A stretch of 64,000 nucleotides of DNA from Escherichia phage vB_EcoM_Schickermooser. The notes beneath the pieces are model-generated. The model saw nothing but the letters and a program-made list of their open reading frames with translations. It had not been told where the DNA came from and made no database searches. Both the position numbers and the translations under genes were made by a program. Shown piece after piece: positions 31,527 to 57,871 of this stretch (its first letter is position 1; each line of letters begins with the position of its first letter). The stretch lies in the sequence record NC_048196.1; one strand, written 5' to 3'.

Positions 31527-31787
31527 TTACTCCGCAATTTGAGCCATGAGATCACGCAGTTCGGTAAAACCGCCTACGTATGTTACCTCCCCGTTCACTT
31601 CAGACAAAATTTGTGGAAATGTGCGTGGAGGAACTCCGGTAAGATCAACAACTGTTTTAGTCATTGATTCTAAATCGTAGTCTTGGTCAAGACTTAAATA
31701 TTCAAACTGTTTATTGCGCATGGTTAATAGTTGTTTTGACATTTCGCAAAATTGACAGTTAGGTTTACCAAAAATTACAAATTCCAT
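31527..31787 (-). CDS. glutaredoxin (NrdH/Grx-like)
   Basis: CQFC redox motif in GKPNCQFCEMSK; 86 aa. Confidence 0.65.
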   Translation of the reverse strand: MEFVIFGKPNCQFCEMSKQLLTMRNKQFEYLSLDQDYDLESMTKTVVDLTGVPPRTFPQILSEVNGEVTYVGGFTELRDLMAQIAE

Positions 31788-32629
31788 TACCTCTCCTTAT
31801 TAAGTAATACTGCTAAAGACCGTTCAATACCTTTATTTAAATCTGATTTTGTAAGATAGTGACTGGTTACTAGTTGTGACTTCACCGGACGTGCTGCTGG
31901 AGCATTATAGGTTGAAGCTGATACCGCCGATATCTTAACAGGTTCTGGCATCTGTGTCAAGATCTTTTCCGCAAACTCCGCCCAAGAAATAAGATGGCTT
32001 CCTGCAAAATGGTAAGTCTTTACAGATCTTGACCAACCTGTTTTTAATACTTCAAAAATAGCTTCTGCTAAATCTGGGGCATATGTTGGACAAGAGAACT
32101 GATCTGCAACGATAGTAAAATCACGTTGTCCATCATTATAGCGAGACAACATAGTTTTTAGAAAGTTATTTCCAAATTCACTATATACAGACGCTGTTCG
32201 AATAATATATGCGTTCGGGTTAACTCCTCGCACCATTTTTTCACCGAGTTCTTTCGTATACCCATAATTGTTTATCGGGTTAGGTGTAGTATCTTCAAAA
32301 ATAGGATGAGAATAATTAAAAATATAGTCTGTAGAAATATGCACAAAATCAATTTTAAGTTTGCTGCACACTGCCGCAATATTTGCAGGGCCATAGGCAT
32401 TAACAGCCAAAGCAGTAGCAAAATCATGTTCTGCTTTATCTACAGCCGTATAAGCAGCGCAATTAATAACACCATCTACATAATCTTCAATAATAGCGTT
32501 TCGCACAGCTTCAAAATTTGTAATATCTACACGTTCTTTAGGATAAATTAAAGACACATTTGAAGGAGCCACTTTACGTAAAGCTTGTCCCAGTTGTCCA
32601 TTACCACCCAATACCAGATATGTTAGCAT
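31787..32629 (-). CDS. rmlD: dTDP-4-dehydrorhamnose reductase
   Basis: N-terminal GGNGQLG Rossmann motif; about 280 aa; last gene of rml operon. Confidence 0.7.
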   Translation of the reverse strand: MLTYLVLGGNGQLGQALRKVAPSNVSLIYPKERVDITNFEAVRNAIIEDYVDGVINCAAYTAVDKAEHDFATALAVNAYGPANIAAVCSKLKIDFVHISTDYIFNYSHPIFEDTTPNPINNYGYTKELGEKMVRGVNPNAYIIRTASVYSEFGNNFLKTMLSRYNDGQRDFTIVADQFSCPTYAPDLAEAIFEVLKTGWSRSVKTYHFAGSHLISWAEFAEKILTQMPEPVKISAVSASTYNAPAARPVKSQLVTSHYLTKSDLNKGIERSLAVLLNKER

Positions 32630-33189
32630 ACACCCTCGCTACGTAGCTGTTGAAAAGACTTAGCCATTGCATCTTTTGTTGATAAGATAGGTTTAAAATC
32701 TTCGTCAAAAATCATATCGAAGCCCCAATCAATCCCTATATCAGGATCATCCCAACGTAAACTTTGTTCGCTGGAAGGGTCGTATGGAGTTGTGCATTTG
32801 TATTCGAAGATAGCATCCATACTCAACACTATAAAACCATGTGCCAAACCAGGTGGAAGCCAGAACTGTGTATGGTGTCGTGCACGAAGAACAACACCGT
32901 CCCAAGCACCGTAAGTAGGACTATCTTTACGTAGGTCTACAGCGAAATCCAATACTTCCCCACTTACACAACGAACAAGCTTACCTTGCGGATTATTTGT
33001 TTGAAAGTGCATTCCTCGCAAAACACCGAAGTTTGATTTAGACATGTTATCTTGAACGAAAGTTTGTCTACCAATGATATCTTCATATTTTTGTTCATTA
33101 TATGTTTCTAAAAAGAAACCACGGTCATCTTTATAAACGTCTGGTTTGATAATTACCGCACCTTCAATTTTTGTTTTTTCTACTTTCAT
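32623..33189 (-). CDS. rmlC: dTDP-4-dehydrorhamnose 3,5-epimerase
   Basis: start set to ATG 33189 (GGAGG upstream, ATGA overlap with rmlA stop); DDRGFFLE cupin motif. Confidence 0.7.
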
Positions 33190-34064
33190 TTTCCCTCCGC
33201 TAATTTGAGTAGGTATTGCCCGTACTCTGTTTTCTTCAGTGAGTTTCCATGGTAGACCAAAGTCTCTAAAGAAATCCACCCTTTTTTGAAAGCAATTTCT
33301 TCCAGGCACGCAATCTTCAATCCTTGACAGTTCTCAATAGTCTGCACGAATTGACCAGCTTCCATCAGACTGGCGTGTGTTCCTGTGTCAAGCCAAGTAA
33401 ATCCTCGTCCGAGAACTTCTACTTGTAACTTCCTGTCTTCGAGGTAGCTGCGATTGATATCGGTGATCTCCAGTTCTCCACGCGCGGAAGGGGTTACTTC
33501 TAATGCACGTTGAATAACAGAGTTATCATAGAAATATAAACCTGTGACAGCATAATCTGATTTAGGATTTTCAGGTTTCTCTTCAATAGAAATAACTTGA
33601 CGATTACTCCCAAATTCAACCACACCGAATCGTTCAGGATCTTTCACCAAACACCCGAAGATACAAGCTCCGCCCCAAACATCTACCATCTCACTAGCGT
33701 TAATCAGTAGTTTACCAAAGCTTTGTCCGAAGAATAGGTTGTCACCTAAAATAAGAGCAACAGAGTCTTCTCCGATAAAATCTTTACCGATGATGAAAGC
33801 GTCCGCAAGACCTCGTGGCTCGGATTGGATTGCGTAAGTGAGTTTTATCCCAAACATAGACCCATCTCCAAGAAGATGCTCAAAGTCTTCCTGATCGCCT
33901 GGTGTGGTGATGATTAAGATATCCTTAATGTCAGCCAACATCAATACCGATAAGGGGTAGTAGATCATAGGTTTGTCATACACAGGGAGCAATTGCTTGC
34001 TCACACTGCGTGTTACCGGATGAAGGCGGGTTCCACTTCCTCCCGCCAAAATAATACCTTTCAT
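33186..34064 (-). CDS. rmlA: glucose-1-phosphate thymidylyltransferase
   Basis: N-terminus [18 protein letters not shown]. Confidence 0.8.
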
Positions 34065-34072
34065 AACCCTCC

Positions 34073-35065
34073 TTAAATCTTCTTACTCCACCATTGAGGG
34101 TTGTTTAAGTACCATTCAATCGTTGAGTAGAGATCTTGTTCAAATGTAGAGTTTGCACTCCAACCCAGTTCAGACTCTATTTTAGAAGGATTGATTTCAT
34201 AACGCAAGTCATGTCCTTTACGATCTTCAACAAAAGTTATCAAGTTGGAAGAAGGGTAGGTTCCTGCTTCTGGATGTACAGCATCCATGTAGTCACAAAC
34301 CATATAGATGATCTCCATATTGGTTTTGGGATTACGTGTTCCAACATTATACGTTTGACCTGGTTCTCCACCTGTTGCCACTTGAAGAATAGCTCGCGCA
34401 TGATCCTCAACAAAAAGCCAGTCTCGCACCTGATCGCCTTTACCATACACCGGAATCTCTTTATTCGTCAAGATACTTGTGATGATTTTTGGGATCAGCT
34501 TTTCTGGATGTTGATAAGGTCCAAAGTTATTGGAGCAGTTGGTTATCACAACAGGTAAACCGTAGGTACGGTACCAAGCTTTCACAAGATGGTCAGATGC
34601 TGCCTTAGACGCACTGTACGGGCTTGAAGGCGCATAAGCTGTCTCTTCGGTAAAGGGAACGCCAGAGTCTGCCATATCGCCGTACACTTCGTCTGTGGAG
34701 ACATGTACGAACATCTTAAGTTTATTTTTTGGGAGGAGCCTTGCAGCTTCCAATAAATTGTATGTACCAATAATATTGGAGTCGATGAAAACTCGTGGAT
34801 TCTTGATAGAATTATCCACATGACTCTCTGCCGCTAAGTGAATGATGAAATCGGGATTGCACTCTACTACTAAACTTTTGACCTGGGTTTCGTTTGCCAA
34901 ATCTGTTATGCTTAGTTTAACGTGAGTGATATCGCCTACATTCTCAATATCTGCTGCATAGCCCATCTTATCAACGACAAAAACTTCGTTATTGGGATCT
35001 TGACAAAGAGAGCGCACCACGGCACTCCCAATAAAACCAAGACCACCTGTTACCAGATAGCGCAT
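34073..35065 (-). CDS. rmlB: dTDP-glucose 4,6-dehydratase
   Basis: GGLGFIGS Rossmann motif and YSASK catalytic motif; first of rmlB-A-C-D. Confidence 0.75.
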
Positions 35066-43156: not shown

Positions 43157-44116
43157 TTAGATTCCAATAATAGTTGCTGCTCGTTTATCTTTGGATCTGG
43201 TGTTTGCTCTACTACGTGACAAACCTCCACAAGATTCACAACGAATGATATCGAAAGAACTTACCGCAGTGTGGTATTGTTTACCAGTAACAACGTGAAC
43301 GTGATCACTGCCACAACGAGAACAACGGACCTTCTCATCTGGGTAATAAGCGGATAAGTTAGGATGCTGTGGAATCCACGGAAGGATTTTCATATACAAA
43401 TCACGGAGCGAAACAACATCACCATCATTGTAAATCTGCATACGTTCAAAAGCATCACGATCACCTTCACAACATGCTTTCCATAAAGGGAACCCCTCGT
43501 TATCCAGTTTTTCACTTTCTGTTTCGAAATATGCTCCCATTTCTTTAAGGGAGTTGGAAGGAAGTGCAAATTGTTTCTTAGCTGCCTTCAATGTATCAAC
43601 AACTACATAATTAGAAGGAGGAGCCATATCGTGATATGCAAATCGTTGGTTAATGTATGCACGGTCAAACTTATATCCGTTGTGTGCCACAACTACATCT
43701 GCCTCATTCAGAAGGTTCCAAAGATCTTGGCAAAGCTCCCAATCATCTGTATGATCAATATCAAAAAGAGGATAAGAAGACAAGTTCTTACCTTCCACTT
43801 CACCAGTATACAGGTCGGCAGAAGAGTAAGATAACAAATAACCCCTACGAATTACTTGATCTGGAGAAATGAAGGCTTTGAATCGACGGAAAGTATATGC
43901 AATCTCTGGTGCAGTTTCAACATCAATAATTTTAATAACTGGTTGTTTCTTTTTAACTGGCTCTTGTTTACTTGCTCCGAATCGTGCAAGGAAATCGTTC
44001 ACTGTGCTTTTTCTTGTTGGACTACCTAAAACAATTGCTGCAATATTGCGAGAAGACATACCCTCTGCACTCATACTAAGGATATCTGCTTTCTGCTCTT
44101 CTGTTAATCTGCTCAC
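43157..44116 (-). CDS. DEDD-type 3'-5' exonuclease with N-terminal HTH and C-terminal zinc ribbon
   Basis: IIDVETA (Exo I), VVAHNGYKFD (Exo II), YNDGD (Exo III-like); CSRCG ... CESCGG. Confidence 0.55.
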   Translation of the reverse strand: MSRLTEEQKADILSMSAEGMSSRNIAAIVLGSPTRKSTVNDFLARFGASKQEPVKKKQPVIKIIDVETAPEIAYTFRRFKAFISPDQVIRRGYLLSYSSADLYTGEVEGKNLSSYPLFDIDHTDDWELCQDLWNLLNEADVVVAHNGYKFDRAYINQRFAYHDMAPPSNYVVVDTLKAAKKQFALPSNSLKEMGAYFETESEKLDNEGFPLWKACCEGDRDAFERMQIYNDGDVVSLRDLYMKILPWIPQHPNLSAYYPDEKVRCSRCGSDHVHVVTGKQYHTAVSSFDIIRCESCGGLSRSRANTRSKDKRAATIIGI

Positions 44117-45243
44117 TCTGCCTCCTGTTGCGAGATGTATGACTGAAGCATACTCTCAAATGTTGTATCGTCATTATCCCAGCGTTTCATGTATACCAAC
44201 TGGAAAATTGTTTCTATCCATTCATCTGTTGTCATATGGACTTCTTCTCCATCCCAAGAAGTAAAATTAACACCATCTGGGAACCATGAGTAGTAAGTAT
44301 CTTTAACTGTTTGGAAAAGTTCTGCTTGAGTTTTACAAGCTGAAAGAAGATTAAAACAAGTAATATCTCCGAACTTAATATCAAAATCTTGATAAGGTCG
44401 GATACTATCTGTTTTATCTCCCATTAGCATCTGATATGCTAACCAGTAACTGCCCCAACCTTTAACTTCTTTCTTTTTACCTTTATCTACGATCCATATG
44501 TCGCCAATAGACTCGTCAATAAGAATTATATCTGGATTTTTAAATACTCCATCCTCTTTGTAGAAATTAAAAAGGATACTAGGAGTATGTAAACTATCTT
44601 TATCTATAGATACAACGATATAAGAAAATTTACCCGTCCTTTTATAATCTTTATAACCTTGGAAACCATACTTCTCTAACTCATCATCAGCTTCTATTAC
44701 AGTAACAACATCACCATTGTGGAACTCCACAAGATAATCTTTGGTTTCTGAAAGCTGGAGTGGTTTGATATCTAATCGTTCAGATTTATATTCTACAGGC
44801 ATTTTGAAGGCGTGTCTGAAAGTTTTTCCTACGCCAATAACTCCGCAATATTTTTCTAAACGTAGATGTTTTAGAATACCTAAGACTTTTGTTTTAGCTG
44901 CTTGGAAGGTGTGTCCGATATCTTCTGGCGGATATTGCTTATCAATGATTTCGAACTCTTCCTTTGTGAAGGGACGTTTGTTTTTGGAGGCTCTTTCTGC
45001 ATTTGTATCTCCTAGCCAACCTCCAATTTTAGTCTTGCTTTTACCCCAAAACTCTGTCTTATTTTTAAATTCCTTTTGAGCACCTGAAGGGATGTGCTTC
45101 GCAATGATTGTTCTTTTCTCTAATGCAGACGCTGCTTGGAAAGCGATCTGATCATAATCAATTGCAGCTATTGTTTCTTCGTTGACATATAAATGAAGAT
45201 CTTCAGGTTTAATTAAAATATAACCGCTAATATTTCCCCCTAA
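44113..45243 (-). CDS. FEN-family 5'-3' exonuclease/flap endonuclease-like protein; start unresolved
   Basis: EADD, SIDKD and GDKTDSIRP motifs; frame is open from first ATG (44802) up to 45243 with no ATG/GTG/TTG. Confidence 0.45.
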   Translation of the reverse strand, partial: LGGNISGYILIKPEDLHLYVNEETIAAIDYDQIAFQAASALEKRTIIAKHIPSGAQKEFKNKTEFWGKSKTKIGGWLGDTNAERASKNKRPFTKEEFEIIDKQYPPEDIGHTFQAAKTKVLGILKHLRLEKYCGVIGVGKTFRHAFKMPVEYKSERLDIKPLQLSETKDYLVEFHNGDVVTVIEADDELEKYGFQGYKDYKRTGKFSYIVVSIDKDSLHTPSILFNFYKEDGVFKNPDIILIDESIGDIWIVDKGKKKEVKGWGSYWLAYQMLMGDKTDSIRPYQDFDIKFGDITCFNLLSACKTQAELFQTVKDTYYSWFPDGVNFTSWDGEEVHMTTDEWIETIFQLVYMKRWDNDDTTFESMLQSYISQQEAE

Positions 45244-46460: not shown

Positions 46461-47186
46461 TTACTTATTAATAATACCTGCAATATTAGGTTTGACAAAG
46501 GTCGATGGTTTCATGATCTTACCTTTATCATCAAAGAACACATACACTTTCTGTTTTTCATTATAAACAGCATGAACACCAGTGTATGCCCCTTCTGGAC
46601 GATTGGCATTTCGTTCTTCAATTGCAGCGCATTCTTGTGCAATGGCTGAATCGATATCCGAAGTTTTCCAAGTTTTCAGCAACTGTTGTTTAGTTGGATA
46701 CTTGGAATCATTACTTTTCAATACCTCTTTAATAACTTTCTTTTCTGGATATTTTGAACGGATTAGAGTGTCACGAGACATACGCATAATACCAGCAGCC
46801 ATTAGTGCCATTTGAACTGGCTCTGTAAATGTTTGTTCCAAAGCATCAAAATCAGTATACACAGTTGGAGTAAAAACATCGCCTACAGCATAGTCCAAGA
46901 AATTCATCGTATGTTCTTCACCAAAGAACATGTAGGTCAGATAACTGGATACTACAAAAATATCCGCTGCTGCATCCAAGAGTTCTACATGATCGTTTAC
47001 TTTCGCGGCTGTTTCATACTCTTTAAGCTCTTCACGAACGAATCCGATTTGGGACATAAATAGCTCTTGAGTGAATTCAGGTTGTTCACCACCTCGTGCT
47101 TTAGCATTCCAATCAATCACGTGCTTCGCTGCATTTTTGAAAAATTCAGTATCGAACTTAATATCTTTAAAAAAATTCTCGATCAT
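46461..47186 (-). CDS. hypothetical protein, possibly MazG-like NTP pyrophosphohydrolase
   Basis: all-alpha E-rich segment EELKEYETAAK...ELLDAAADI. Confidence 0.35.
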   Translation of the reverse strand: MIENFFKDIKFDTEFFKNAAKHVIDWNAKARGGEQPEFTQELFMSQIGFVREELKEYETAAKVNDHVELLDAAADIFVVSSYLTYMFFGEEHTMNFLDYAVGDVFTPTVYTDFDALEQTFTEPVQMALMAAGIMRMSRDTLIRSKYPEKKVIKEVLKSNDSKYPTKQQLLKTWKTSDIDSAIAQECAAIEERNANRPEGAYTGVHAVYNEKQKVYVFFDDKGKIMKPSTFVKPNIAGIINK

Positions 47187-47578: not shown

Positions 47579-48706
47579 TTACTCTGCTGGTTCCCAAGTG
47601 CCTGGGATCATTTCTCGAATACGAACACCAACAGGTTTTGTTGGAATACCTTCATCTGAAAATTCTTCATACTCTATTTCAACGAACTGATTAATCAAGG
47701 TAGAAGCATTCTCTGCTTTACGATAATTGATAGTCTCATGAGCATCTTTACGCATTAAGAATTCGACTACTTTACCATTTTCCATCTCACCTGTCAACAC
47801 TCCATCGCCATTTTTATCGCTTTTTGAATTTGTTACTTTAACTTCAAGGGTGTGGCGAGGCTTACGTTTAATAACGTCATAAGAACGTTTATCAAATTCG
47901 TAAACTCCGTGAGCATTACGATATACTACACCTTCAGCTTTCTCAAGTAAAGCTTTTTCATAGAAAGCGTCAAACTGCTCTTGGTTTTCAATATACTCTG
48001 TATGAACTACACAAATAAGCTCGTCAAGACCATAATCTTCAACTACTGCCTTAAGAGCAGCAAGAGCATCAACACGTTTTTCAAACGGTAGACCTGGAAC
48101 TGGAATATCGTATACGTAATAATTCAGCAAAGGTGTATTTGCATTATGCTTCTTCCAAGCACTGTTAATTTGTTGCAGACTAAGGACACCTAACCCAGCA
48201 AACACTTCACCATCAAGAGGATGACCAACAACTTCACTAATAAAGTTTGGAATACCTTTCCAATGAGGTGGCAGGTTATACACTTCCCCAGCTTTTGATA
48301 AACACTCCCCTTTCATGTTAATCATAGAACGTAACCCGTTCAGTTTGTATTGTGCATAACCAGGGAACACAACCCTTTCAGGATAATCTTTATAATCCTG
48401 GCATTTCATTGGTGTGGAAGGAACATGGTTTTCAGCTTCTTCTTTTGTTTTATAATAGCCATTCTTTAACTGTTTTGTCCATTTGGCAAAAGCTTCAAGT
48501 TCAGCTTGTTCTTCCGGTGTTGTTTCATTGGAACGACCAATGTTTTTTGCTTCTGCTGTATAAGATTTTTCTGTGATCTTTCCACCTACTCTTCCATGAG
48601 CTACAGTAACAACTGCACCATCTGTATATACTGTCCACTGTTTAAGTTTTCCTTTTGAATCTTTACCATACAGCGTTTGATTTGTTTGTTGCATTAGTCC
48701 TCCCAT
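47579..48706 (-). CDS. ATP-dependent ligase (nucleotidyltransferase family; DNA-ligase-like)
   Basis: motif I KLNGLR (KxDG variant), motif III LDGEVF, motif IV EGVVYR, motif V-like VIKRK. Confidence 0.5.
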   Translation of the reverse strand: MGGLMQQTNQTLYGKDSKGKLKQWTVYTDGAVVTVAHGRVGGKITEKSYTAEAKNIGRSNETTPEEQAELEAFAKWTKQLKNGYYKTKEEAENHVPSTPMKCQDYKDYPERVVFPGYAQYKLNGLRSMINMKGECLSKAGEVYNLPPHWKGIPNFISEVVGHPLDGEVFAGLGVLSLQQINSAWKKHNANTPLLNYYVYDIPVPGLPFEKRVDALAALKAVVEDYGLDELICVVHTEYIENQEQFDAFYEKALLEKAEGVVYRNAHGVYEFDKRSYDVIKRKPRHTLEVKVTNSKSDKNGDGVLTGEMENGKVVEFLMRKDAHETINYRKAENASTLINQFVEIEYEEFSDEGIPTKPVGVRIREMIPGTWEPAE

Positions 48707-48915
48707 TTAAAAACTGAAATTTTCAATCTGTTACACACTTCATCCAAATCTGCGTCGAGTAACGTTGTAGATGTTGCCAACATATAATCAATGCTTGTGA
48801 AACCTTGCCCTTTGGCATAGTCAAGCATATCTTCATACATATCTTCAAGATCACCGTCATCAAAAGTAGCTAGAAAATCCTCTTCTCCGCTACGAACATA
48901 AAATGCAGTACTCAT
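48694..48915 (-). CDS. hypothetical protein
   Basis: 73-aa ORF. Confidence 0.4.
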   Translation of the reverse strand: MSTAFYVRSGEEDFLATFDDGDLEDMYEDMLDYAKGQGFTSIDYMLATSTTLLDADLDEVCNRLKISVFKWED

Positions 48916-49103
48916 TCTTCTTCATCCCAAGATTCAAAAGCACAACAATCATCGGTTTCTATAATACCAACACGTCCGCAGGTATTGCAAGTGATTTTAT
49001 CCCCGTAGAATAAATAATTTTTATCACCCTCTGTGTTTACAGTTATGTCATTACTACCACAAGGGCAAGTCAGCCAACCAACAACAACGATATCTTTTTT
49101 CAT
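48912..49103 (-). CDS. small zinc-ribbon protein
   Basis: CPCG ... CNTCG. Confidence 0.45.
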   Translation of the reverse strand: MKKDIVVVGWLTCPCGSNDITVNTEGDKNYLFYGDKITCNTCGRVGIIETDDCCAFESWDEEE

Positions 49104-49112
49104 AATCCCTCC

Positions 49113-49439
49113 TTAAGCGTTCAGTTCGTTGTTGAGTTCGTAAATCTCTTCTTGAAGAGCATCAATCTCTTCCTCCAAACGGGAGATCTCTTCTTTTAGA
49201 TATACCATTTCGGATTCTTTCTCTTCTAATTCATTTTCAAATTTTACTTTATTAGCCTCATTTTCATAATGCAGTTCAGCGTAATCATCACGCATTTGTT
49301 CAATAAGATGAATCAGAGACAAGATATAATTGTCTCCCGTTTCATCACGCCACTCTTCACCGTGACGGAGAACGGTAATTCGTCCAGTATCTTCATCTAA
49401 AATTGTCTCATATTTACGATCATCTGTATAAATCTGCAT
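49113..49439 (-). CDS. coiled-coil protein
   Basis: C-terminal repetitive EE..E..L heptad-like sequence. Confidence 0.5.
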   Translation of the reverse strand: MQIYTDDRKYETILDEDTGRITVLRHGEEWRDETGDNYILSLIHLIEQMRDDYAELHYENEANKVKFENELEEKESEMVYLKEEISRLEEEIDALQEEIYELNNELNA

Positions 49440-49448
49440 TATTTCTCC

Positions 49449-49853
49449 TTATTGAAGTTTAAGTGAACCACGAAGACGTTTCTCTTGCTGATCACGGATA
49501 TATTGTGGAACCTCGTGAATTGAATCATTACCGTGCCTATTTTCAACAATTAAAGAGATAACTTGATAACCAAACTCTTCAGCAAGAGCTAGATAAGGTT
49601 TAAGTTCTTTCTCTGTGGTTGAAGTATTAGAAACAATAATCTTGTTAAGATTAGATGCCATAGCATCACGAACAATACCCTGACACCATGCGTGTGCTTT
49701 ACCTACATTTTCTGGCTTCCAATCGTAAACACCACTCTCTGTGTAATGATATTGATCTGCCTCACAGATAGGCCAATAACCTTCAGAAATAATTTCTGCT
49801 ACTGTAGATTTACCAGCACCTGAAACGCCACGTAAAATGATAAGTTGTTTCAT
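49449..49853 (-). CDS. P-loop kinase (polynucleotide-kinase-like)
   Basis: Walker A GVSGAGKST; 134 aa; adjacent to ligase and phosphoesterase. Confidence 0.55.
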   Translation of the reverse strand: MKQLIILRGVSGAGKSTVAEIISEGYWPICEADQYHYTESGVYDWKPENVGKAHAWCQGIVRDAMASNLNKIIVSNTSTTEKELKPYLALAEEFGYQVISLIVENRHGNDSIHEVPQYIRDQQEKRLRGSLKLQ

Positions 49854-50786
49854 TTATCCTCCAAAAAAGTTTTCGATTTTTTCACGTCGCTCTTGCTGAT
49901 TTAAAGCAGCCCATTGAGTCTTCGTAAAATTATTTCGAATCCATTCTAACAAAGCGTAATATTCTTCGTCAACCATTTGTTTGGCATTTTTTGGATTATC
50001 CCAAATCAGATCCCACTTTTTATCTCCACCGCGCATAAGAAACTTCTTAGTAAGATAGTGTGGTGATTTAATTTTTAAAAGTAAGTTGAACGGATAGTTT
50101 GTTTCACGAACTACAAACCCTTCGTGTTTACAATGTTTAGACATTTCAACAACATCTGAAAACTTAACCATTGGATGAACTTCAGGACGCTTAAATTTGG
50201 TGACAGAAGCAATTCCATCAAGAGCACCTTCAGGTAACATAAAACTTGTCCCATCAGGATTTTGAATTCTGGCACCAATTAAGTATGCACCTGGTTCTTC
50301 TTCGACAATATGCGGATCAGAAGGATCACAGATTTCAAAAAGGAAAGTTGCTTTTGCACTCTCTGTCCATTTGATGAAATGTTCTATGTCATCACACTCT
50401 GAAACAATACGATTCTTTGCAATACTTGCAAAATCTGATTCAAGGCTTCCTGTTGTCGATACAATAAGTTGACCTTTATATACACCTACAGAGGCCATAA
50501 AACCATTTACTTTACGAACCACATCTACAAGTTCATCCAATGGTAGATCTGTGCCATTCTCAAAACGATTAAAAATCTTAGTGAAAGGCCAAATAACAAC
50601 ATTGTCATCAGCATCAACAACGATTCCGCGACATTCTAGAAGACGAGAATCAATGCTCCATAAGTTATCCCAGAAAACTTTGTTCTTATACTTAAGAACA
50701 GATAGACCAGAATACTCTCCTTCTTTATATGTTTTCTTATGAACTAAACCTTTTTCAACCAAATCGTCGCAATTAAATTTAGTCAC
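49854..50786 (-). CDS. RNA-ligase-like nucleotidyltransferase
   Basis: motif I KVNGFM, motif IV EGFVVRE, motif V LLKIK. Confidence 0.5.
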   Translation of the reverse strand: MTKFNCDDLVEKGLVHKKTYKEGEYSGLSVLKYKNKVFWDNLWSIDSRLLECRGIVVDADDNVVIWPFTKIFNRFENGTDLPLDELVDVVRKVNGFMASVGVYKGQLIVSTTGSLESDFASIAKNRIVSECDDIEHFIKWTESAKATFLFEICDPSDPHIVEEEPGAYLIGARIQNPDGTSFMLPEGALDGIASVTKFKRPEVHPMVKFSDVVEMSKHCKHEGFVVRETNYPFNLLLKIKSPHYLTKKFLMRGGDKKWDLIWDNPKNAKQMVDEEYYALLEWIRNNFTKTQWAALNQQERREKIENFFGG

Positions 50787-50787
50787 A

Positions 50788-51339
50788 TTACTCTCCTTTG
50801 ATTATTTTGTGATGGTCTACAGTCACGATATCTCGTTTACTCATCATAGAAATTATCTCATCAAAATGCAAGATTTTTCCGTGTGCATCCCAACCCACAT
50901 CTAACATTTTACCATAAGCTTCATCAGGGAAAGATCCGTGGGAATGCCCGTGTAGCATGATTGATCCACGACCTTGTTTATTCCAGGAGGCCATAGGGTA
51001 ATGACTTAAGACGAAGAACAGCTTCTGATATTTCACTTCGTCATAATACACCACTTCCCCATACTCTGCAAGCACTTCTCGGTGTTTGCTGTAGTCATGG
51101 TTCCCAACACAGTAGGTGATATCTCCTTGGAGACGAGAAGCAATTTTACGGGTATCTTCTTCAGTTCCGAAACAGAAGTCGCCCAAATGCCACATCTTAA
51201 CACCAGGAGTAGTAGCACATTTGTTCCATGCTTCGATCAAGGCTTCTGTCATGTGGTCCATATCTTCCCACGGACGATATTCAGGAGCAAACTCTCGAAT
51301 ACGTTTATGCATAAAATGCAAATCGCTTGTAATAAACAT
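50788..51339 (-). CDS. calcineurin-like metallophosphoesterase
   Basis: SDLHF, LGDFCFG, GNHD and HGHSH motifs. Confidence 0.65.
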   Translation of the reverse strand: MFITSDLHFMHKRIREFAPEYRPWEDMDHMTEALIEAWNKCATTPGVKMWHLGDFCFGTEEDTRKIASRLQGDITYCVGNHDYSKHREVLAEYGEVVYYDEVKYQKLFFVLSHYPMASWNKQGRGSIMLHGHSHGSFPDEAYGKMLDVGWDAHGKILHFDEIISMMSKRDIVTVDHHKIIKGE

Positions 51340-51695
51340 TAGTATAATCCCTCGCTAAATAATTCATGGTCGTGACCATTACGCTCATGGTCGATCTGGT
51401 CAGCATTTTCCGCGATGATGTAAGCATCCGCACGACTCCACCAATTGTAATACTGATCGATAAAGCCTTGATTATCTGGTGTGCACAAAGTTTTGTTGAT
51501 TACACCTGCTTCTTTCAACACGTTTAACTGTGCATATAGTACAGGATTTGCATGTCGAACACAAGGAATAATTAACTCTTCACCATTATTCAAAATATAC
51601 TTATTTGCAGCACAGACGATAACACGTTGCGCATAATGACCCTCACCCATCCAGGTAAGAGGTTGGTAACAAATATTGTTTTCAATACCACTCAT
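51339..51695 (-). CDS. hypothetical protein
   Basis: 118-aa ORF. Confidence 0.5.
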   Translation of the reverse strand: MSGIENNICYQPLTWMGEGHYAQRVIVCAANKYILNNGEELIIPCVRHANPVLYAQLNVLKEAGVINKTLCTPDNQGFIDQYYNWWSRADAYIIAENADQIDHERNGHDHELFSEGLY

Positions 51696-51701
51696 TGTTT
51701 C

Positions 51702-51845
51702 CTAATCCTCCTCTCTTAAGTTATCCTCGAAAAAACTAGTGTCTGGAAGTAAAAGATCATTACTTGTGTCGGGCCAATCCTCTTCTTCTCGGTAGATAAA
51801 GTAACCTTCGTCCTCTTCTTGTTCCGACCAAACCGAATGATGCAT
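51702..51845 (-). CDS. small acidic protein (47 aa)
   Basis: AAGGAGAG SD then ATG. Confidence 0.3.
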   Translation of the reverse strand: MHHSVWSEQEEDEGYFIYREEEDWPDTSNDLLLPDTSFFEDNLREED

Positions 51846-51854
51846 GTTCTCTCC

Positions 51855-52199
51855 TTAGTAGTGCACACGAATCATTTTAATACCATAACGCAGCATAGAT
51901 TCTTTTGCAAGCATGAATTTATCCCCAGCGGCGGGATTAGAAGTATGCACGAAAATGGTGGGTGAACCAAAGCAAGGTTTACCAAACGCCAGAAGTTCTT
52001 CCAGGTACAGGAAAACATCATACCCATCTTGGTCTGACTCCATACCTAAATCATTGTCAAAAGACCACTCGGTTACTCTTCGATACAGTTTAGCAGGATC
52101 GTTGAGAAAGGCCATAGCTTCTTGTGACGTTTTAAACCAAATTGCATCCTCCTGTCCATAGTCGGCTGGGTTCCGCATATCATCTATCCAAACTTTCAT
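51855..52199 (-). CDS. hypothetical protein
   Basis: 114-aa ORF. Confidence 0.5.
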   Translation of the reverse strand: MKVWIDDMRNPADYGQEDAIWFKTSQEAMAFLNDPAKLYRRVTEWSFDNDLGMESDQDGYDVFLYLEELLAFGKPCFGSPTIFVHTSNPAAGDKFMLAKESMLRYGIKMIRVHY

Positions 52200-55946: not shown

Positions 55947-56021
55947 GGCCCTGTAGCTCAATGGGAGAGCTGTCGGCTCATAACCGATAGGTAGCTGGAT
56001 CGAAACCAGCCAGGGCCACCA
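55947..56021 (+). tRNA. tRNA-Met (anticodon CAT; could be Ile2/lysidine type)
   Basis: manual cloverleaf: acceptor GGCCCTG/CAGGGCC, anticodon loop CTCATAA, encoded CCA. Confidence 0.6.
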
Positions 56022-56023
56022 AA

Positions 56024-56098
56024 GTCTTTATGGTGTAATGGATAGCACAGGAGTCTTCTAAACTCTTAGTCAAGGTTCGATTCCTTGTAAAGACACCA
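56024..56098 (+). tRNA. tRNA-Arg (anticodon TCT)
   Basis: acceptor GTCTTTA/TAAAGAC, anticodon loop CTTCTAA, T-loop TTCGATT, CCA. Confidence 0.6.
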
Positions 56099-56100
56099 GA

Positions 56101-56286
56101 ACATTTTAACATGAATTAGCTCAAGTGATTTGAACCCACTACTGATCATGGTGGCAGAGAATGAGGCAAGTATGTCAGACATTATAAACAAAGGCCACGG
56201 TTATATTAGAAGACATAAATGCTCGAAGAGCACCGTTCGTGGAGAACGGGGGTTGGTGGAGTCACCATTCATGGTAAAATGTTTTA
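56101..56286 (+). ncRNA. candidate structured RNA flanked by 17-bp near-perfect inverted repeat
   Basis: AACATTTTAACATGAAT at 56101 pairs with ATTCATGGTAAAATGTT at 56270 (one mismatch). Confidence 0.3.
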
Positions 56287-56294
56287 AAAAACTA

Positions 56295-56324
56295 TTGACA
56301 ACAAGTATTATTTTATGTTAGATT
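56295..56324 (+). promoter_or_regulatory. sigma70-like promoter candidate (TTGACA-N18-TAGATT)
   Basis: TTGACA 56295-56300; immediately upstream of tRNA-Ser. Confidence 0.45.
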
Positions 56325-56332
56325 ATAAGTAT

Positions 56333-56423
56333 GGAAGGGCAAATCGACGTGGCGACGAAAACGGTCTTGAAAACCGCCGAGCTTTAAAGAGCCTTGGGAG
56401 TTCGACTCTCCCTCCTTCCGCCA
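56333..56423 (+). tRNA. tRNA-Ser (anticodon TGA), type II
   Basis: acceptor GGAAGGG/TCCTTCC, loop CTTGAAA, long variable arm, CCA. Confidence 0.55.
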
Positions 56424-56428
56424 GGTTA

Positions 56429-56514
56429 GGTAGATTGGTGAAATGGTAGCCACGACAGTTTGCTAAACTGTAGTCGGAAACGGCGTGTAGGTTCGAGTCC
56501 TACATCTACCGCCA
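56429..56514 (+). tRNA. tRNA-Ser (anticodon GCT), type II
   Basis: acceptor GGTAGAT/ATCTACC, loop TTGCTAA, long variable arm, CCA. Confidence 0.6.
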
Positions 56515-56516
56515 AG

Positions 56517-56625
56517 TTCTTTTTAATGTAGCTTACTTTAATAGAGTAAACTTTCGGCAAATGGCCCCCACCATCTTACCGATAACTCATAGTTAGTGGT
56601 GCGAACACTGGCTATTTTAAAAAGA
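56517..56625 (+). ncRNA. candidate structured element between tRNAs
   Basis: TTCTTTTTAA at 56517 versus TTAAAAAGAA at 56616 inverted repeat; internal hairpins. Confidence 0.2.
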
Positions 56626-56643
56626 ATTTAAATACTAGCATTT

Positions 56644-56731
56644 AGGTGAGTTAATTCCGTAGGGGTAGCGGGGCAGACTGTAAATCTGTTATCATTGCGA
56701 TTCGGGTGGTTCGACTCCATCACTCACCACC
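56644..56731 (+). tRNA. tRNA-Tyr (anticodon GTA), type II
   Basis: acceptor GGTGAGT/ACTCACC, loop CTGTAAA, long variable arm, CCA. Confidence 0.55.
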
Positions 56732-56737
56732 AAATTA

Positions 56738-56823
56738 AGATGAGTTGGCTGAATGGTTTAAGCGGCGGACTGTTAATCCGTGTTCGAAAGAACGATATAG
56801 GTTCAAATCCTATACTCATCGCC
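56738..56823 (+). tRNA. type II tRNA with apparent anticodon GTT (Asn anticodon on long-variable-arm body)
   Basis: acceptor GATGAGT/ACTCATC, anticodon stem GCGGA/TCCGT, loop CTGTTAA, variable hairpin GTTC-GAAA-GAAC, CCA. Confidence 0.45.
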
Positions 56824-56830
56824 AGAATTA

Positions 56831-56908
56831 TGGACTTGTAGAGTTAAGGTAAACCCCCCAGTCGCCAAGAGGCTTCTGGAATTGCAGGTATCGAATCCTG
56901 CCGAGTCC
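56831..56908 (+). tRNA. tRNA-like element, atypical (anticodon not assignable)
   Basis: 7-bp acceptor pairing GGACTTG/CGAGTCC and T-arm GCAGG/CCTGC with 8-nt loop; no canonical anticodon arm. Confidence 0.3.
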
Positions 56909-56914
56909 CAGCTT

Positions 56915-56989
56915 TGCTCCTATAGTATAATGGCTATTACAACGGTTTTGTAATCCGTGGATCTCTGTTCGATTCAGAGTGGGAGCACC
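56915..56989 (+). tRNA. tRNA-Thr (anticodon TGT)
   Basis: acceptor GCTCCTA/TGGGAGC, loop TTTGTAA, T-arm CTCTG-TTCGATT-CAGAG, CCA. Confidence 0.55.
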
Positions 56990-57263
56990 AACACAACATT
57001 AAGGGCACTGTGATTGATCGTCGTATCCTGTGCACAAGGTCTGTTCGAAAGACAGTGTTCTTAGTATTGTGTTGATCACAAAAAGAGTTACCTGAAACTT
57101 GACCGGAGTAGGGTTGGATGGGGCAAAAGAAGAAGCGGCTCTCCCATCGACAGCAACGAAGAATAATATTTGACTTTGGTTTTGTATTATTTTAAGTTAG
57201 CTTACCGAACGTAGGGCTAGTCACCCAATGGGATACTCGTCACTGTCCCACTCAATAAAACTA

Positions 57264-57293
57264 TTGACAACCAATAGTAAAATGTAGTATAGT
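57264..57293 (+). promoter_or_regulatory. sigma70-like promoter candidate (TTGACA-N18-TATAGT)
   Basis: TTGACA 57264-57269, TATAGT 57288-57293; upstream of tRNA-Gly. Confidence 0.5.
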
Positions 57294-57304
57294 AAAGATG
57301 TAGG

Positions 57305-57378
57305 GCGTTCTTGGTGTAGCGGTAGCATTCCGTCCTTCCAAGTCGGCGGCACGAGTTCGATCCTCGTAGAACGCTCCA
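57305..57378 (+). tRNA. tRNA-Gly (anticodon TCC)
   Basis: acceptor GCGTTCT/AGAACGC, loop CTTCCAA, T-arm ACGAG-TTCGATC-CTCGT, CCA. Confidence 0.55.
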
Positions 57379-57476
57379 AATTATTTAATAAAGGGTTGCC
57401 AGAAAACTTTCTCTTTTACTCATGGTTTTCTCCTTCTCTCACACCTCTTCTGGTTGCCCTTCATTAAATGATTTAT

Positions 57477-57552
57477 TGGTTTGTAGTGTAGTCAGGTAGC
57501 ACACGACACTTTGACTGTCGTAGGTTTGGTTCAAATCCAGACAGACCAGCCA
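57477..57552 (+). tRNA. tRNA-Gln (anticodon TTG)
   Basis: U1-A72 acceptor TGGTTTG/CAGACCA, anticodon stem CGACA/TGTCG, loop CTTTGAC, CCA. Confidence 0.55.
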
Positions 57553-57557
57553 TATAA

Positions 57558-57634
57558 CGGAATTTAGCTCAGTTTGGTAGAGCATACGCTTTGGGAGCGT
57601 AGGGTCGCAGGTTCGAATCCTGCAATTCCGACCA
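57558..57634 (+). tRNA. tRNA-Pro (anticodon TGG)
   Basis: acceptor CGGAATT/AATTCCG, loop TTTGGGA, T-arm GCAGG-TTCGAAT-CCTGC, CCA. Confidence 0.65.
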
Positions 57635-57640
57635 ATTTAA

Positions 57641-57714
57641 TGTTTCGTAGTTCAATGGTAGAACCCACGACTGATAATCGTGAGACACAAGTTCGATTCT
57701 TGTCGAAACAACCA
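57641..57714 (+). tRNA. tRNA-Ile (anticodon GAT)
   Basis: acceptor TGTTTCG/CGAAACA, anticodon stem CACGA/TCGTG, loop CTGATAA, CCA. Confidence 0.55.
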
Positions 57715-57717
57715 ATT

Positions 57718-57786
57718 TCCCGTTAGACTTACAGGATAAGAGTTCCACAGCTTATTGTGATGCTGGTTCGAATCCAGCACGGGATA
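57718..57786 (+). tRNA. tRNA-like element with non-canonical anticodon arm
   Basis: T-arm GCTGG-TTCGAAT-CCAGC and 6/7 acceptor pairing; best anticodon stem CACA/TGTG encloses a 6-nt loop; no CCA. Confidence 0.3.
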
Positions 57787-57792
57787 CATAAT

Positions 57793-57871
57793 AGCGGGAT
57801 AGAGGAGTCTGGTCGTCCTCGCCAGTTTCATATGCTGGAGATCATCGGTTCAAATCCGATTCCCGCCTCCA
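57793..57871 (+). tRNA. tRNA-Met (anticodon CAT), 1-72 mismatch (initiator-like?)
   Basis: acceptor AGCGGGA/TCCCGCC with A1-C72 mismatch, anticodon stem CCAGT/GCTGG, loop TTCATAT, T-loop TTCAAAT, CCA. Confidence 0.5.

Follow-up and report, generated by a model that had tools for sequence, protein, structure and literature searches.

We found that three contiguous genes in the window analysed here (the whole 64,000-nucleotide stretch of Escherichia phage vB_EcoM_Schickermooser, NC_048196.1) probably form a phage module for RNA end healing and end sealing, composed of a metallophosphoesterase, an RNA ligase and a kinase, with a cREC domain protein as accessory member (Table 1). [quoted passage not shown] Neighbourhoods of this type were already predicted by computation to serve RNA repair in 2022 (PMC9503650), and the window, a Phapecoctavirus sequence 99.9% identical to Escherichia phage ESCO13, carries a variant of them.

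Table 1. Genes of the candidate RNA repair cassette and surrounding features of the window.
Feature	Length	Coordinates	Strand	Basis or position
SIR2-family protein	271 aa	18770..19585	-	Pfam SIR2, E 1.9e-22
MazG-like nucleotide pyrophosphohydrolase		46461..47186	-	Pfam PRA-PH, E 2.7e-6; phrog_671
ATP-dependent DNA ligase	371 aa	47579..48694	-	PF01068, phrog_114, clade profile
phrog_16431 small ORF		48694..48915	-	between kinase and DNA ligase
Zn-ribbon (Lar-like) protein, small ORF		48912..49103	-	between kinase and DNA ligase
Coiled-coil protein, small ORF		49113..49439	-	between kinase and DNA ligase
Stand-alone P-loop kinase, polynucleotide 5'-kinase-like	134 aa	49449..49853	-	Pfam, PHROG, profile
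ATP-dependent RNA ligase, Rnl1/Trl1 family	310 aa	49854..50786	-	motifs, Pfam
Binuclear metallophosphoesterase, AQ_1665 subfamily	183 aa	50788..51339	-	Pfam, PHROG, profile
T4_Y16D family protein	118 aa	51339..51695	-	PF26092, phrog_839; between cREC and phosphoesterase
cREC (cyclic-phosphate-processing receiver-like) domain protein (cREC_REC)	114 aa	51855..52199	-	PF20274, E 3.9e-17
Phage tRNA array		55947..57871	+	ten ARAGORN tRNAs, eleventh Rfam tRNA match

The trio is packed without gaps, in the reading order phosphoesterase, RNA ligase, kinase: position 51339 is common to two genes, 50788 and 50786 are one base apart, and 49854 and 49853 adjoin. A promoter scan of the window returned no more sites than expected by chance, so that it is gene packing that argues for an operon. 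An earlier note, made from the letters of the sequence, had proposed a healing-and-sealing cassette with a second ligase nearby. The motifs it quoted for the kinase, the RNA ligase, the phosphoesterase and the larger ligase all lie where it had placed them, on the minus strand, and HMM searches above the curated Pfam cut-offs bear out the domain identities of all four proteins. Profile, structural and synteny comparisons support the cassette, gene fusions strengthen the case, and the second ligase is a DNA ligase encoded 0.75 kb downstream. However, the extent given (47579-51339) was too narrow: the trio is contiguous, but the cassette is larger, with cREC upstream, MazG downstream and a SIR2 gene displaced by 30 kb. 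The T4_Y16D family protein is probably not a repair component.

The RNA ligase scores 56.2 bits against Pfam RNA_lig_T4_1 (curated cut-off 28.3) and displays motif I K92-V-N94-G95 (KVNG, residues 92-95), motif III E151, motif IV E222-G-F-V-V-R227 (EGFVVR, 222-227) and motif V K238/K240 (LLKIK, 236-240), followed by a short, helical C-terminal region (242-310). All residues common to T4 Rnl1 and its relatives are kept (R53, K70, F72, K92, G95, E151, E222, G223, K238 and K240). Asn in motif I, which the earlier note had pointed out in both ligases and called unusual for DNA ligases, is indeed present but is no anomaly: it occurs in 200/200 and 147/147 of the family members examined, and KxNG is the published motif I form of fungal Trl1-LIG. 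By these alignments it is the normal state of the RNA ligase clade, not a defect.

The enzyme is as similar to the tRNA-splicing ligase of fungi as it is to the T4 archetype. It is only 20% identical to T4 Rnl1, has KxNG and Thr where the latter has KEDG and the motif Ia Lys119 (Thr112 in 200/200 clade members), has a basic insertion of 8 residues behind motif V, and is missing most of the C-terminal tRNA-specificity domain; without this domain and the motif Ia Lys, a tRNA substrate stays a proposal. Residues N94, H159, K248 and R252 are invariant in the clade (200/200 in one set, 146-147/147 in the other) and all four are jointly missing from the KxDG (T4-type) subfamilies, T4 Rnl1 included. 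They seem to have counterparts in the site where Trl1 binds the 2'-phosphate, a correspondence that is new in this analysis. In CthTrl1, a sulfate mimicking the 2'-phosphate is held by Asn150 of motif I, His227, Arg334 and Arg337 (PMC6379707, PMC11404444). H159 and the Trl1 histidine pair in the HMMER alignment (EICDPS-DPHIV vs ELCDDSFEEHIL/EYCDDTFEEHIL), and K248 and R252 follow motif V at a distance of 8 and 12 residues, whereas the RxxR arginines of Trl1 lie at +9 and +12.

The kinase contains a P-loop, GVSGAGKST, at residues 9-17 (G9-T17), and matches Pfam AAA_33 (40.8 bits vs cut-off 27, E 3.5e-10), phrog_2071 and phrog_505 'polynucleotide kinase' (E 1.2e-7). Compared with solved structures, its family profile finds Pnkp1 (4xrp, 6e-8), T4 Pnk (1ltq, 5.6e-7) and the CthPnkp kinase (4gp7, 1.3e-6), and its putative catalytic Asp33 aligns with an Asp of T4 Pnk INRDDY.

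The phosphoesterase scores 24.9 bits against Pfam Metallophos (cut-off 21.5, E 3.1e-5), matches phrog_547 (E 6.5e-56), and has the motifs SDLH (5-8), GDF (53-55), GNHD (79-82) and GHSH (131-134). Its metal-binding residues D6, H8, G53-D54, G79-N80-H81, H113, G131-H132 and H134 are invariant in 18 homologues. It had been described as calcineurin-type; it is a metallophosphoesterase, but of the AQ_1665 subfamily and not of the CthPnkp/lambda type. Its profile matches PDB 1xm7 (aq_1665, E 4.6e-23), a structural-genomics protein and its sole solved relative, and finds no Pnkp or lambda phosphatase in the PDB. We presume that it is the 3'-end healing enzyme, acting as 2',3'-cyclic phosphodiesterase and/or phosphatase; given its subfamily, its product (2'-OH or 2'-PO4) is not readable from sequence.

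The association of these genes is conserved. Among 80 IMG/VR viral loci with a homologue of the RNA ligase (38-87% identity), an iterative search within 7 kb of the ligase recovered a kinase in 72 and a phosphoesterase in 63, the remaining 17 having no phosphoesterase there. Such co-occurrence far exceeds chance; the linked genes come in two different orders, and 11 loci encode a single kinase-ligase polypeptide. Ligase-kinase and metallophosphoesterase-ligase fusions are also present among the 150 representatives listed from a 50%-identity protein library; 23 of these 150 exceed 650 aa, and the four scanned with Pfam all combine kinase, metallophosphoesterase and ligase. Trifunctional proteins of this kind, in which the RNA ligase clade of the window is joined to a PPP-type phosphoesterase domain differing from the AQ_1665-type enzyme of the window, recall the bacterial Pnkp-Hen1 and Pnkp1-Rnl-Hen1 systems (Clostridium thermocellum, Capnocytophaga). 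These have the same trio of kinase, calcineurin-type phosphoesterase and ligase, and their Pnkp1 and CthPnkp kinases are the best repair-enzyme matches of the window kinase profile. In CthPnkp, the calcineurin-type phosphoesterase and the kinase can heal broken tRNA that an Rnl1 ligase then seals (PMC1920235).

Concerning the wider cassette, the window cREC protein has the motifs WxDDxR, FDNDLG, HTSNP and KFML, which most or all of its 10 homologues share (HSSNP in one, KYML in two). A cREC gene lies near the RNA ligase in 10/80 loci; its role is known as a prediction (PMC7824862, PMC9503650), and the window protein may be an accessory member. MazG recurs beside cassettes of this type (13/80 loci) and is part of the neighbourhood described by Iyer et al. 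(2022, PMC9503650). For phages V5 and Mydo, these authors predicted an NAD+-dependent RNA repair neighbourhood centred on a sirtuin, which has the same components as the window: T4-like ligase, cREC, nucleotide kinase, MazG and calcineurin-like phosphoesterase. SIR2 is close to the RNA ligase in 11/80 loci (L005-L013, L015 and L017), and in L007, the locus in which the flanking genes were assigned, its place is between kinase and DNA ligase. In the window, this slot is taken by three small unrelated ORFs (48694..49439; phrog_18076, a weak TIGR03655 match and phrog_16431) kept beside the ligase in at most 2/80 loci. A jackhmmer search from the L007 protein retrieved the window SIR2 (E 1.9e-130), which by this match is the orthologue of the sirtuin found between kinase and DNA ligase in relatives; its displacement by about 30 kb is a new observation.

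Phage T4 uses Pnkp and Rnl1 for tRNA repair against the anticodon nuclease PrrC. By analogy, the module of the window probably protects translation from host tRNA-cleaving defences. Unlike in T4, its kinase is a separate protein and its phosphatase a calcineurin-type metalloenzyme instead of a HAD domain. Use against anticodon nucleases, which the earlier note had also put forward, draws on this T4 precedent, and we infer substrate, end chemistry and timing as follows. A metal-independent ribonuclease would cut RNA, most plausibly in a tRNA anticodon loop, leaving a 2',3'-cyclic phosphate and a 5'-OH. The kinase would transfer a phosphate from NTP to the 5'-OH, and the phosphoesterase, possibly helped by cREC, would open and remove the cyclic phosphate to give a 3'-OH. 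The RNA ligase would then adenylylate itself on Lys92 and transfer AMP to the 5'-phosphate, after which the ends would be joined.

The ligase might instead need a 3'-OH/2'-phosphate end, as fungal and plant tRNA ligases do, with cREC and/or the metallophosphoesterase stopping at the 2'-phosphate and the phage SIR2 or the host KptA removing the phosphate from the 2'-phosphate junction with NAD+. We consider this unlikely, although the Trl1-like motif I, the four invariant residues, the likeness of motif IV (EGFVVR vs EGFVIR in Trl1) and the sirtuin, which has been suggested as a KptA analogue (PMC9503650), all speak for it, as does the fact that T4 Rnl1 does not seal 2'-phosphate ends (PMC12440814). 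Against it, Asp-x-His-Gly is present in 22 of the 23 long fusions with this RNA ligase clade (GDxHG in 20, another first residue in two), P0483 being the only one with Asp in place of His; the His form of CthPnkp yields 2'-OH ends that T4 Rnl1 seals, and its H189D mutant yields 2'-phosphate (PMC1920235). D6-x-H8 of the phosphoesterase in the window is likewise canonical. In plant Trl1, which nevertheless depends on the 2'-phosphate, both arginines are missing, so that these residues are not diagnostic, and the profile of the C-terminal region of the phage ligase (a region of about 69 aa vs about 79 aa in Trl1) matches nothing in the PDB. Moreover, SIR2 is missing from the neighbourhood in 69/80 loci, and no 2H cyclic phosphodiesterase is present. 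The phage ligase also differs from Trl1 ligase domains (Rnl6 clade) in being fused neither to a GTP-dependent kinase nor to such a phosphodiesterase, its partners being the metallophosphoesterase and cREC.

Kinase and phosphoesterase could also heal DNA ends (3'-phosphate, 5'-OH) for the DNA ligase, like PNKP, the RNA ligase being incidental. DNA is a substrate of both T4 Pnkp and mammalian PNKP, the kinase profile also matches mammalian PNKP (E 3e-5), the NCBIfam model for ligase-associated PdeM matches the phosphoesterase weakly (E 0.0034, far under its cut-off), and in 40/80 loci a DNA ligase is found no more than 7 kb from the RNA ligase. However, the other 40 have none nearby, kinase and phosphoesterase lie closer to the RNA ligase (0.4-1.5 kb) than does the DNA ligase (2-5 kb, either side), and the fusions seen join them to the RNA ligase, never to a DNA ligase, making this improbable. 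Least probable of all is that the RNA ligase acts mainly in tail-fibre attachment or that the cassette, in place of counter-defence, has a housekeeping task in maturing tRNAs of the phage itself. In PHROG and RefSeq the protein is called 'RNA ligase and tail fiber protein attachment catalyst', a label that goes back to T4 gp63, but this was carried over from a 20%-identical protein, and the NCBIfam T4 RnlA equivalog model fails (25 bits vs cut-off 242); all adenylyltransferase residues are invariant, fusions to kinases and phosphoesterases would be pointless for tail assembly, and the gene is surrounded by DNA/RNA metabolism genes. The tRNA array lies about 4 kb away and includes an eleventh tRNA at 56645-56729 (Rfam, anticodon GUA, Tyr), but tRNA and Rfam scans of it flagged no intron or split gene.

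Returning to the second ligase, its matches to DNA_ligase_A_M (PF01068; 36.3 bits vs cut-off 26.2, E 6e-9) and phrog_114 (E 2.4e-74) and its ASFV-ligase-like arrangement of N-terminal DNA-binding, adenylation and OB domains indicate that it is a true ATP-dependent DNA ligase, of the same type as the ASFV enzyme; it probably serves phage DNA replication or repair and not RNA repair. Read from the upstream ATG at 48706 it has 375 aa, the ESCO13 start being annotated at the second Met (48694); in this longer ORF (47579-48706) the motifs are KLNG (121-124), LDGEV (164-168) and EGVVYR (258-263). The best solved relative of the clade profile is AsfvLIG of African swine fever virus (6imj, E 1.8e-22, profile positions 37-364), the match covering part of the N-terminal DNA-binding, adenylation and OB domains at low identity, and the relative coming from a eukaryotic virus and not a bacteriophage. 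Both share the motif I form K-x-N-G-x-R, and the ASFV enzyme, with Lys151-Arg-Asn153-Gly (KRNG), is biochemically active. Among the 120 closest homologues of the window DNA ligase, 107 have KLNG and 13 KLDG, so that Asn appears normal in this clade too, alternating with Asp.

The minus-strand genes encoding a metallophosphoesterase, an RNA ligase and a 134-aa P-loop kinase constitute a predicted phage RNA healing-and-sealing set, and the finding is real. Cassettes of this type have already been recognised by comparative genomics, and the functions given here are predicted from sequence. The earlier note had proposed such a set, together with a nearby second ligase, and each of the motifs it quoted is present where it was placed. 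All four domain families (RNA_lig_T4_1, AAA_33, Metallophos and DNA_ligase_A_M) score above the Pfam curated cut-offs, in agreement with the PHROG assignments (phosphoesterase phrog_547, RNA ligase phrog_562, ATPase phrog_2071, DNA ligase phrog_114). We found that the cassette reaches further upstream than the span then indicated and takes in a gene for a protein with a cREC_REC domain (PF20274, E 4e-17).

The window comes from a Phapecoctavirus (Stephanstirmvirinae). Across 47579-52199 it shares 99.9% identity with Escherichia phage ESCO13, and this stretch matches 125 phage records. All genes of interest lie on the minus strand, within a long leftward block that runs from ~54.5 kb to ~18.5 kb as judged from GC skew and ORFs. 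The overlap or abutment of the phosphoesterase, ligase and kinase genes fits co-translation. A scan of 45-56 kb for sigma-70 promoters was uninformative (36 sites against 31 +/- 5.5 expected by chance), and the promoter/terminator scan of the same region gave a sole strong terminator-like site on the minus strand.

Features of the window, with the cassette and its neighbours in transcription order followed by the other features discussed
Feature	Position	Strand	Remark
cREC	52199-51855	-	first in transcription order
47-codon ORF		-	between cREC and T4_Y16D-family gene
T4_Y16D-family gene	51695-51339	-	
Metallophosphoesterase	51339-50788	-	
RNA ligase	50786-49854	-	
Kinase	49853-49449	-	
Three small ORFs	49439-48694	-	between kinase and DNA ligase
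DNA ligase	48694-47579	-	
Two small ORFs		-	between DNA ligase and MazG-like gene
MazG-like gene	47186-46461	-	
RdgC-like gene		-	last in order, after MazG-like gene
Terminator-like site	45492-45469	-	
Putative exonuclease	44113-45231	-	
dTDP-rhamnose genes	31787-35065	-	
313-aa ORF	21840-22781		
241-aa ORF	20767-21492	-	
SIR2	18770-19585	-	
tRNA-Tyr candidate	56645-56729	+	

The healing-and-sealing reading proved largely right, as judged from conserved linkage and from fusions of the activities. We retrieved 80 IMG/VR loci whose ligase homologues share 38-87% identity, and ran iterative searches of their ORFs with the proteins of the window as queries. The kinase lies no more than 7 kb from the ligase in 72 of the 80 loci and the phosphoesterase in 63, followed by a DNA ligase (40), MazG (13), SIR2 (11), cREC (10) and the T4_Y16D gene (3). 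Two gene orders occur, phosphoesterase-ligase-kinase and kinase-ligase-phosphoesterase. Moreover, 11 of the 80 loci encode a single polypeptide of ~430 aa made of an N-terminal kinase followed by the ligase (AAA_33 plus RNA_lig_T4_1 in Pfam). When 1.84 billion cluster representatives were searched with a profile, 7,377 ligase relatives were obtained at E <= 0.001, and the best 150 of these include ligase-kinase and metallophosphoesterase-ligase fusions as well as 23 proteins longer than 650 aa. All four of the long proteins scanned with Pfam have the architecture kinase-metallophosphoesterase-ligase. One such trifunctional protein (P0474) is encoded on a 110-kb phage-like contig beside a NUDIX gene, and no Hen1 or methyltransferase family was found next to it. 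That a single chain can carry all three activities is the best evidence we have for joint action of the three genes of the window. No 2H cyclic phosphodiesterase or other phosphatase was found beside the kinase-ligase fusions that do not contain a metallophosphoesterase, nor was a 2H domain seen in the window ORFs scanned.

On two marine/metagenomic viral contigs, the kinase-ligase fusion genes are flanked by ORFs (L048 3703-4536 and 8178-9128; L081 3665-4384) that resemble GIY-YIG/HNH homing endonucleases on inspection of their sequence, a family search giving no match. This suggests that the fusion locus is a hotspot for mobile endonuclease insertion.

The RNA ligase matches Pfam RNA_lig_T4_1 (PF09511) with 56.2 bits (cut-off 28.3), its residues 51-244 covering positions 1-227 of the 227 of the profile, i.e. 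the entire adenylyltransferase domain, and its AlphaFold model is confident (pLDDT 93.2). Although it is only 20% identical to T4 Rnl1, the features of the Rnl1 family are present (motif I Lys, motif III Glu, motif IV Glu-Gly, motif V Lys-x-Lys and the N-terminal Arg/Lys/Phe), and K92, G95, E151, E222, G223, K238, K240, R53, K70 and F72 show no variation in alignments with the T4 enzyme included, where K92, G95, E151, E222, G223 and K238/K240 correspond to K99, G102, E159, E227, G228 and K240/K242. Identity with the T4 RnlA equivalog (NCBIfam TIGR02308) was rejected, at 25.3 bits against a cut-off of 242. The phage ligase also differs from the T4 enzyme in having Thr112 (200/200 clade members) where T4 Rnl1 has the motif Ia Lys119, and Asn in place of the Asp of the T4 RnlA motif I KEDG; furthermore, it stops ~66 residues past motif V and is without most of the T4 C-terminal domain, which is linked to tRNA specificity. 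A search of 50,697 sequenced phage records found the cassette in 678, whose hosts include Escherichia, Pseudomonas, Vibrio, Klebsiella and Acinetobacter, among others. Our literature search found no experiments on the RNA ligases of Phapecoctavirus, Stephanstirmvirinae or Vequintavirinae.

The motif I Asn had been regarded as unusual for DNA ligases in the earlier note, a view that does not hold, as this residue is ordinary in both ligase clades. In the RNA ligase, N94 is the norm of its clade, being conserved in all 200 family members drawn from the 80 loci and a first homology search, and in all 147 representatives at 50% identity. A broad alignment separates two groups cleanly. Ligases of the window-type clade combine KxNG with DPH-I-V past motif III and K...R past motif V, whereas the T4-type, Streptomyces, Stenotrophomonas and Bacillus phage ligases have KxDG and lack all three of the others. 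N94 and H159 are invariant in the phage ligase clade. So are K248 and R252, which follow the second lysine of motif V by 8 and 12 residues and lie in the first helix past that strand.

These residues recall Trl1, the fungal and plant tRNA ligase, whose motif I has been described as “KxNG in Trl1-LIG” and in which Asn150, His227, Arg334 and Arg337 hold a sulfate thought to mimic the RNA 2'-phosphate (PMC6379707; PMC11404444). Mutations of the His and the two Arg slow RNA adenylylation 60- to 580-fold (PMC6379707; PMC11404444). The His, located after the motif III Glu, is the presumed 2'-phosphate binder. Trl1-LIG needs a 3'-OH/2'-phosphate end and is fused to a GTP-dependent kinase and a 2H cyclic phosphodiesterase. 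As in Trl1-LIG/Rnl6, the phage ligase combines KxNG in motif I (KVNG) with a His ~9 residues past the motif III Glu. In PDB searches, Trl1 was reached only with a broad profile mixing both subfamilies (E 7.6e-12 for C. glabrata and ~1e-6 for Chaetomium), and neither single-sequence nor narrow-profile searches retrieved it. In two Trl1 structures, HMMER brings H159 into register with the Trl1 His, EICDPS-DPHIV being aligned with ELCDDSFEEHIL. The two Trl1 arginines stand at +9/+12 (RxxR, in a five-helix C-domain) as against +8/+12 for K248/R252, an equivalence that is positional only, and a profile of the 99 C-terminal residues of the ligase had no match in the PDB. The Asn of the RNA ligase is part of a four-residue signature (N94, H159, K248, R252) that is invariant in its clade and would be in common with Trl1.

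In the kinase, a profile built on 21 homologues shows that R8, G9, G12, G14, K15, T17, D33 and H113 are invariant, with a P-loop of the form GxxGxGKS/T. Against the PDB, this profile retrieves Pnkp1 of the Pnkp1-Rnl-Hen1 complex (4xrp, 6e-8), T4 Pnk (1ltq, 5.6e-7, with D33 aligned to the T4 Pnk Asp), the kinase domain of CthPnkp (4gp7, 1.3e-6) and mammalian PNKP (3e-5). An adenylate kinase 9 chain ranks slightly above these repair kinases through repeated P-loop matches, and an uncharacterised P-loop NTPase (1.8e-7), a Rhizopus kinase (5.6e-7) and L-seryl-tRNA(Sec) kinase (1.2e-6) fall in the same range. The Walker A motif, a putative catalytic Asp ~20 residues downstream and the profile similarity are those of the polynucleotide 5'-kinase clade, and the 134-aa protein is a predicted polynucleotide 5'-end kinase, an assignment that fusions to the RNA ligase in several architectures support indirectly. 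At this length it is a minimal version. A bifunctional kinase-HAD phosphatase of the T4 Pnkp type was rejected, as the protein consists of AAA_33 only and matches positions 1-107 of the 295 of phrog_505.

The phosphoesterase matches Metallophos (PF00149) with 24.9 bits (cut-off 21.5), and D6, H8, G53, D54, G79, N80, H81, H113, G131, H132 and H134 are invariant, which includes all the binuclear-metal ligands. Its sole solved relative is the uncharacterised Aquifex protein aq_1665 (1xm7, E 4.6e-23). The CthPnkp/lambda-phosphatase (PPP) type was rejected, since the protein has SDLHF, GDFCFG and GNHD against GDxHG, GDxxDRG and GNHE, and its profile detected none of the PPP-type domains of the trifunctional fusions. 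It represents a subfamily apart from both the Pnkp/lambda type and the domain of the fusions.

The neighbouring cREC protein (63.1 bits against PF20274, cut-off 27) keeps the receiver-like DD, D, T/S-N-P and K motifs in 11 sequences, and a cyclic-phosphate-opening activity is a published prediction for this family (PMC7824862; PMC9503650). Neighbourhoods combining a sirtuin, a T4-like tRNA ligase, cREC, a nucleotide kinase, MazG and sometimes a calcineurin-like phosphoesterase have been described in phages V5/Mydo, with the proposal that the sirtuin acts on 2'-phosphates like KptA/Tpt1 (PMC9503650). In the type 2 neighbourhood of that study the sirtuin is adjacent, whereas in the window the other components are adjacent and the sirtuin lies ~30 kb away. 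One related locus (L007) has the order phosphoesterase, ligase, cREC, kinase, SIR2, DNA ligase and MazG, and the slot matching the SIR2 position holds three small unrelated ORFs in the window. A sirtuin is absent from the cassette itself, and the orthologous SIR2 (jackhmmer E 1.9e-130; Pfam SIR2 E 1.9e-22) is found elsewhere in the window, at the end of the leftward gene block; it does not have the usual zinc-ribbon cysteines. Membership in the bacterial Pnkp-Hen1 systems was likewise rejected, as the Hen1 2'-O-methyltransferase partner was not found: no methyltransferase family appeared in a scan of 48 window ORFs, which covered only 16.8-54.5 kb of the phage genome. The composition of the cassette is distinct from both T4 Pnkp/Rnl1 and bacterial Pnkp-Hen1. 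Compared with T4 Pnkp/Rnl1, to our knowledge the sole repair pair studied in depth, it has a split kinase, an AQ_1665-type metallophosphoesterase and a ligase standing between T4 Rnl1 and fungal Trl1, with cREC, MazG and SIR2 as satellites.

The signature shared with Trl1 raises the question of whether sealing follows the chemistry of T4 or a Trl1-like route, in which the ligase would require a 2'-phosphate and the junction phosphate would then be removed. The CthPnkp phosphatase is informative here, as its His form leaves 2'-OH ends that T4 Rnl1 seals, whereas its H189D mutant leaves 2'-phosphate ends that yeast Trl1 seals (PMC1920235). The PPP-type domain of most of the 23 long fusions has the canonical Asp-x-His-Gly (20 with GDxHG and two with another first residue), and the phosphoesterase of the window is likewise D-x-H. 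For these reasons we keep T4-like chemistry as the default and consider a 2'-phosphate-requiring ligase unlikely. In its full form, the Trl1-like reading would make the phage ligase clade a prokaryotic-virus counterpart of eukaryotic Trl1, with N94, H159, K248 and R252 forming a 2'-phosphate pocket and the sirtuin or host KptA removing the junction 2'-phosphate with NAD+; we give this scheme a low probability too. We know of no substrate for host KptA in E. coli. Were the Trl1-like reading true, bacteriophages would have a full Trl1/Tpt1-like pathway and a sirtuin would act on nucleic acids; a function would also be provided for phage sirtuins and perhaps for bacterial KptA. The four clade-specific invariant residues offer a direct and cheap handle on how RNA ligases choose 3' ends.

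Only one of the 23 long fusions, P0483 (>650 aa), has Asp for His, with GDTDG in what its motifs indicate to be the phosphoesterase domain. It would be a natural equivalent of CthPnkp H189D, the change that redirects healing to a 2'-phosphate product.

The second ligase matches PF01068 with 36.3 bits (cut-off 26.2), and the best match of its clade profile is the African swine fever virus (ASFV) ligase (6imj, E 1.8e-22), ahead of LigE-type and Chlorella virus ligases. The alignment covers AsfvLIG residues 74-411 of 419, spanning the adenylation and OB domains and only the last part of the N-terminal DNA-binding domain. By family, the 371-aa product is a true ATP-dependent DNA ligase, similar to that of ASFV. 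AsfvLIG is active with Lys151-Arg-Asn153-Gly, its Asn153 has been counted among four “unique” nick-site residues, and its N-terminal domain has been presented as a new fold with no relatives (PMC6344480). Of the 120 homologues closest to the window protein, 107 have KLNG and 13 KLDG, which indicates that this position tolerates both Asn and Asp. Two supposedly “unique” features of AsfvLIG, its N-terminal domain and its motif I Asn, have relatives in phages, the N-terminal domain being shared in part. A weak profile match to PDB 2ra8 was also seen in the N-terminal region of the phage protein. There is no evidence that the DNA ligase belongs to the RNA repair module: it occurs in no fusion with healing enzymes, and the RNA ligase is their closer neighbour.

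Cleavage of tRNA is a widespread bacterial anti-phage defence, and we infer an anti-defence role for the cassette. Many phages carrying it are considered for therapy, and the defences that it neutralises, once known, would help predict host range. The window also holds a tRNA array, as well as a further Rfam tRNA match (39 bits, E 1e-4) in which ARAGORN calls no tRNA and ESCO13 has no annotation. It folds with an acceptor stem GGUGAGU/ACUCACC, reads CUGUAAA in the anticodon loop (GUA, Tyr), has a long variable arm and carries ACCA at its 3' side, and is probably an eleventh phage tRNA, a tRNA-Tyr with an atypical D-arm. This candidate is relevant to the repair cassette because tRNA-Tyr is a known target of host defence nucleases, and the array and the extra gene fit a phage that invests in the protection of translation.

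Elsewhere in the leftward block, the putative exonuclease gene comprises 372 open codons, all of them annotated as such in ESCO13. Its first codon is Ile and only 229 aa remain from the first ATG/GTG/TTG, indicating either a non-canonical start or an overlong annotation. The 241-aa ORF, for which Pfam gave no match, contains FGFPPCT, which recalls motif IV of cytosine-5 methyltransferases, and the adjoining 313-aa ORF matches DUF7275 and DUF7277. Finally, we identified a full four-gene dTDP-rhamnose set (RmlD-, RmlC-, RmlA- and RmlB-like; Pfam E 1e-66 to 1e-80), which adjoins the genes for ribonucleotide reductase, a ThyX-like protein and a 5'-nucleotidase in the phage genome.
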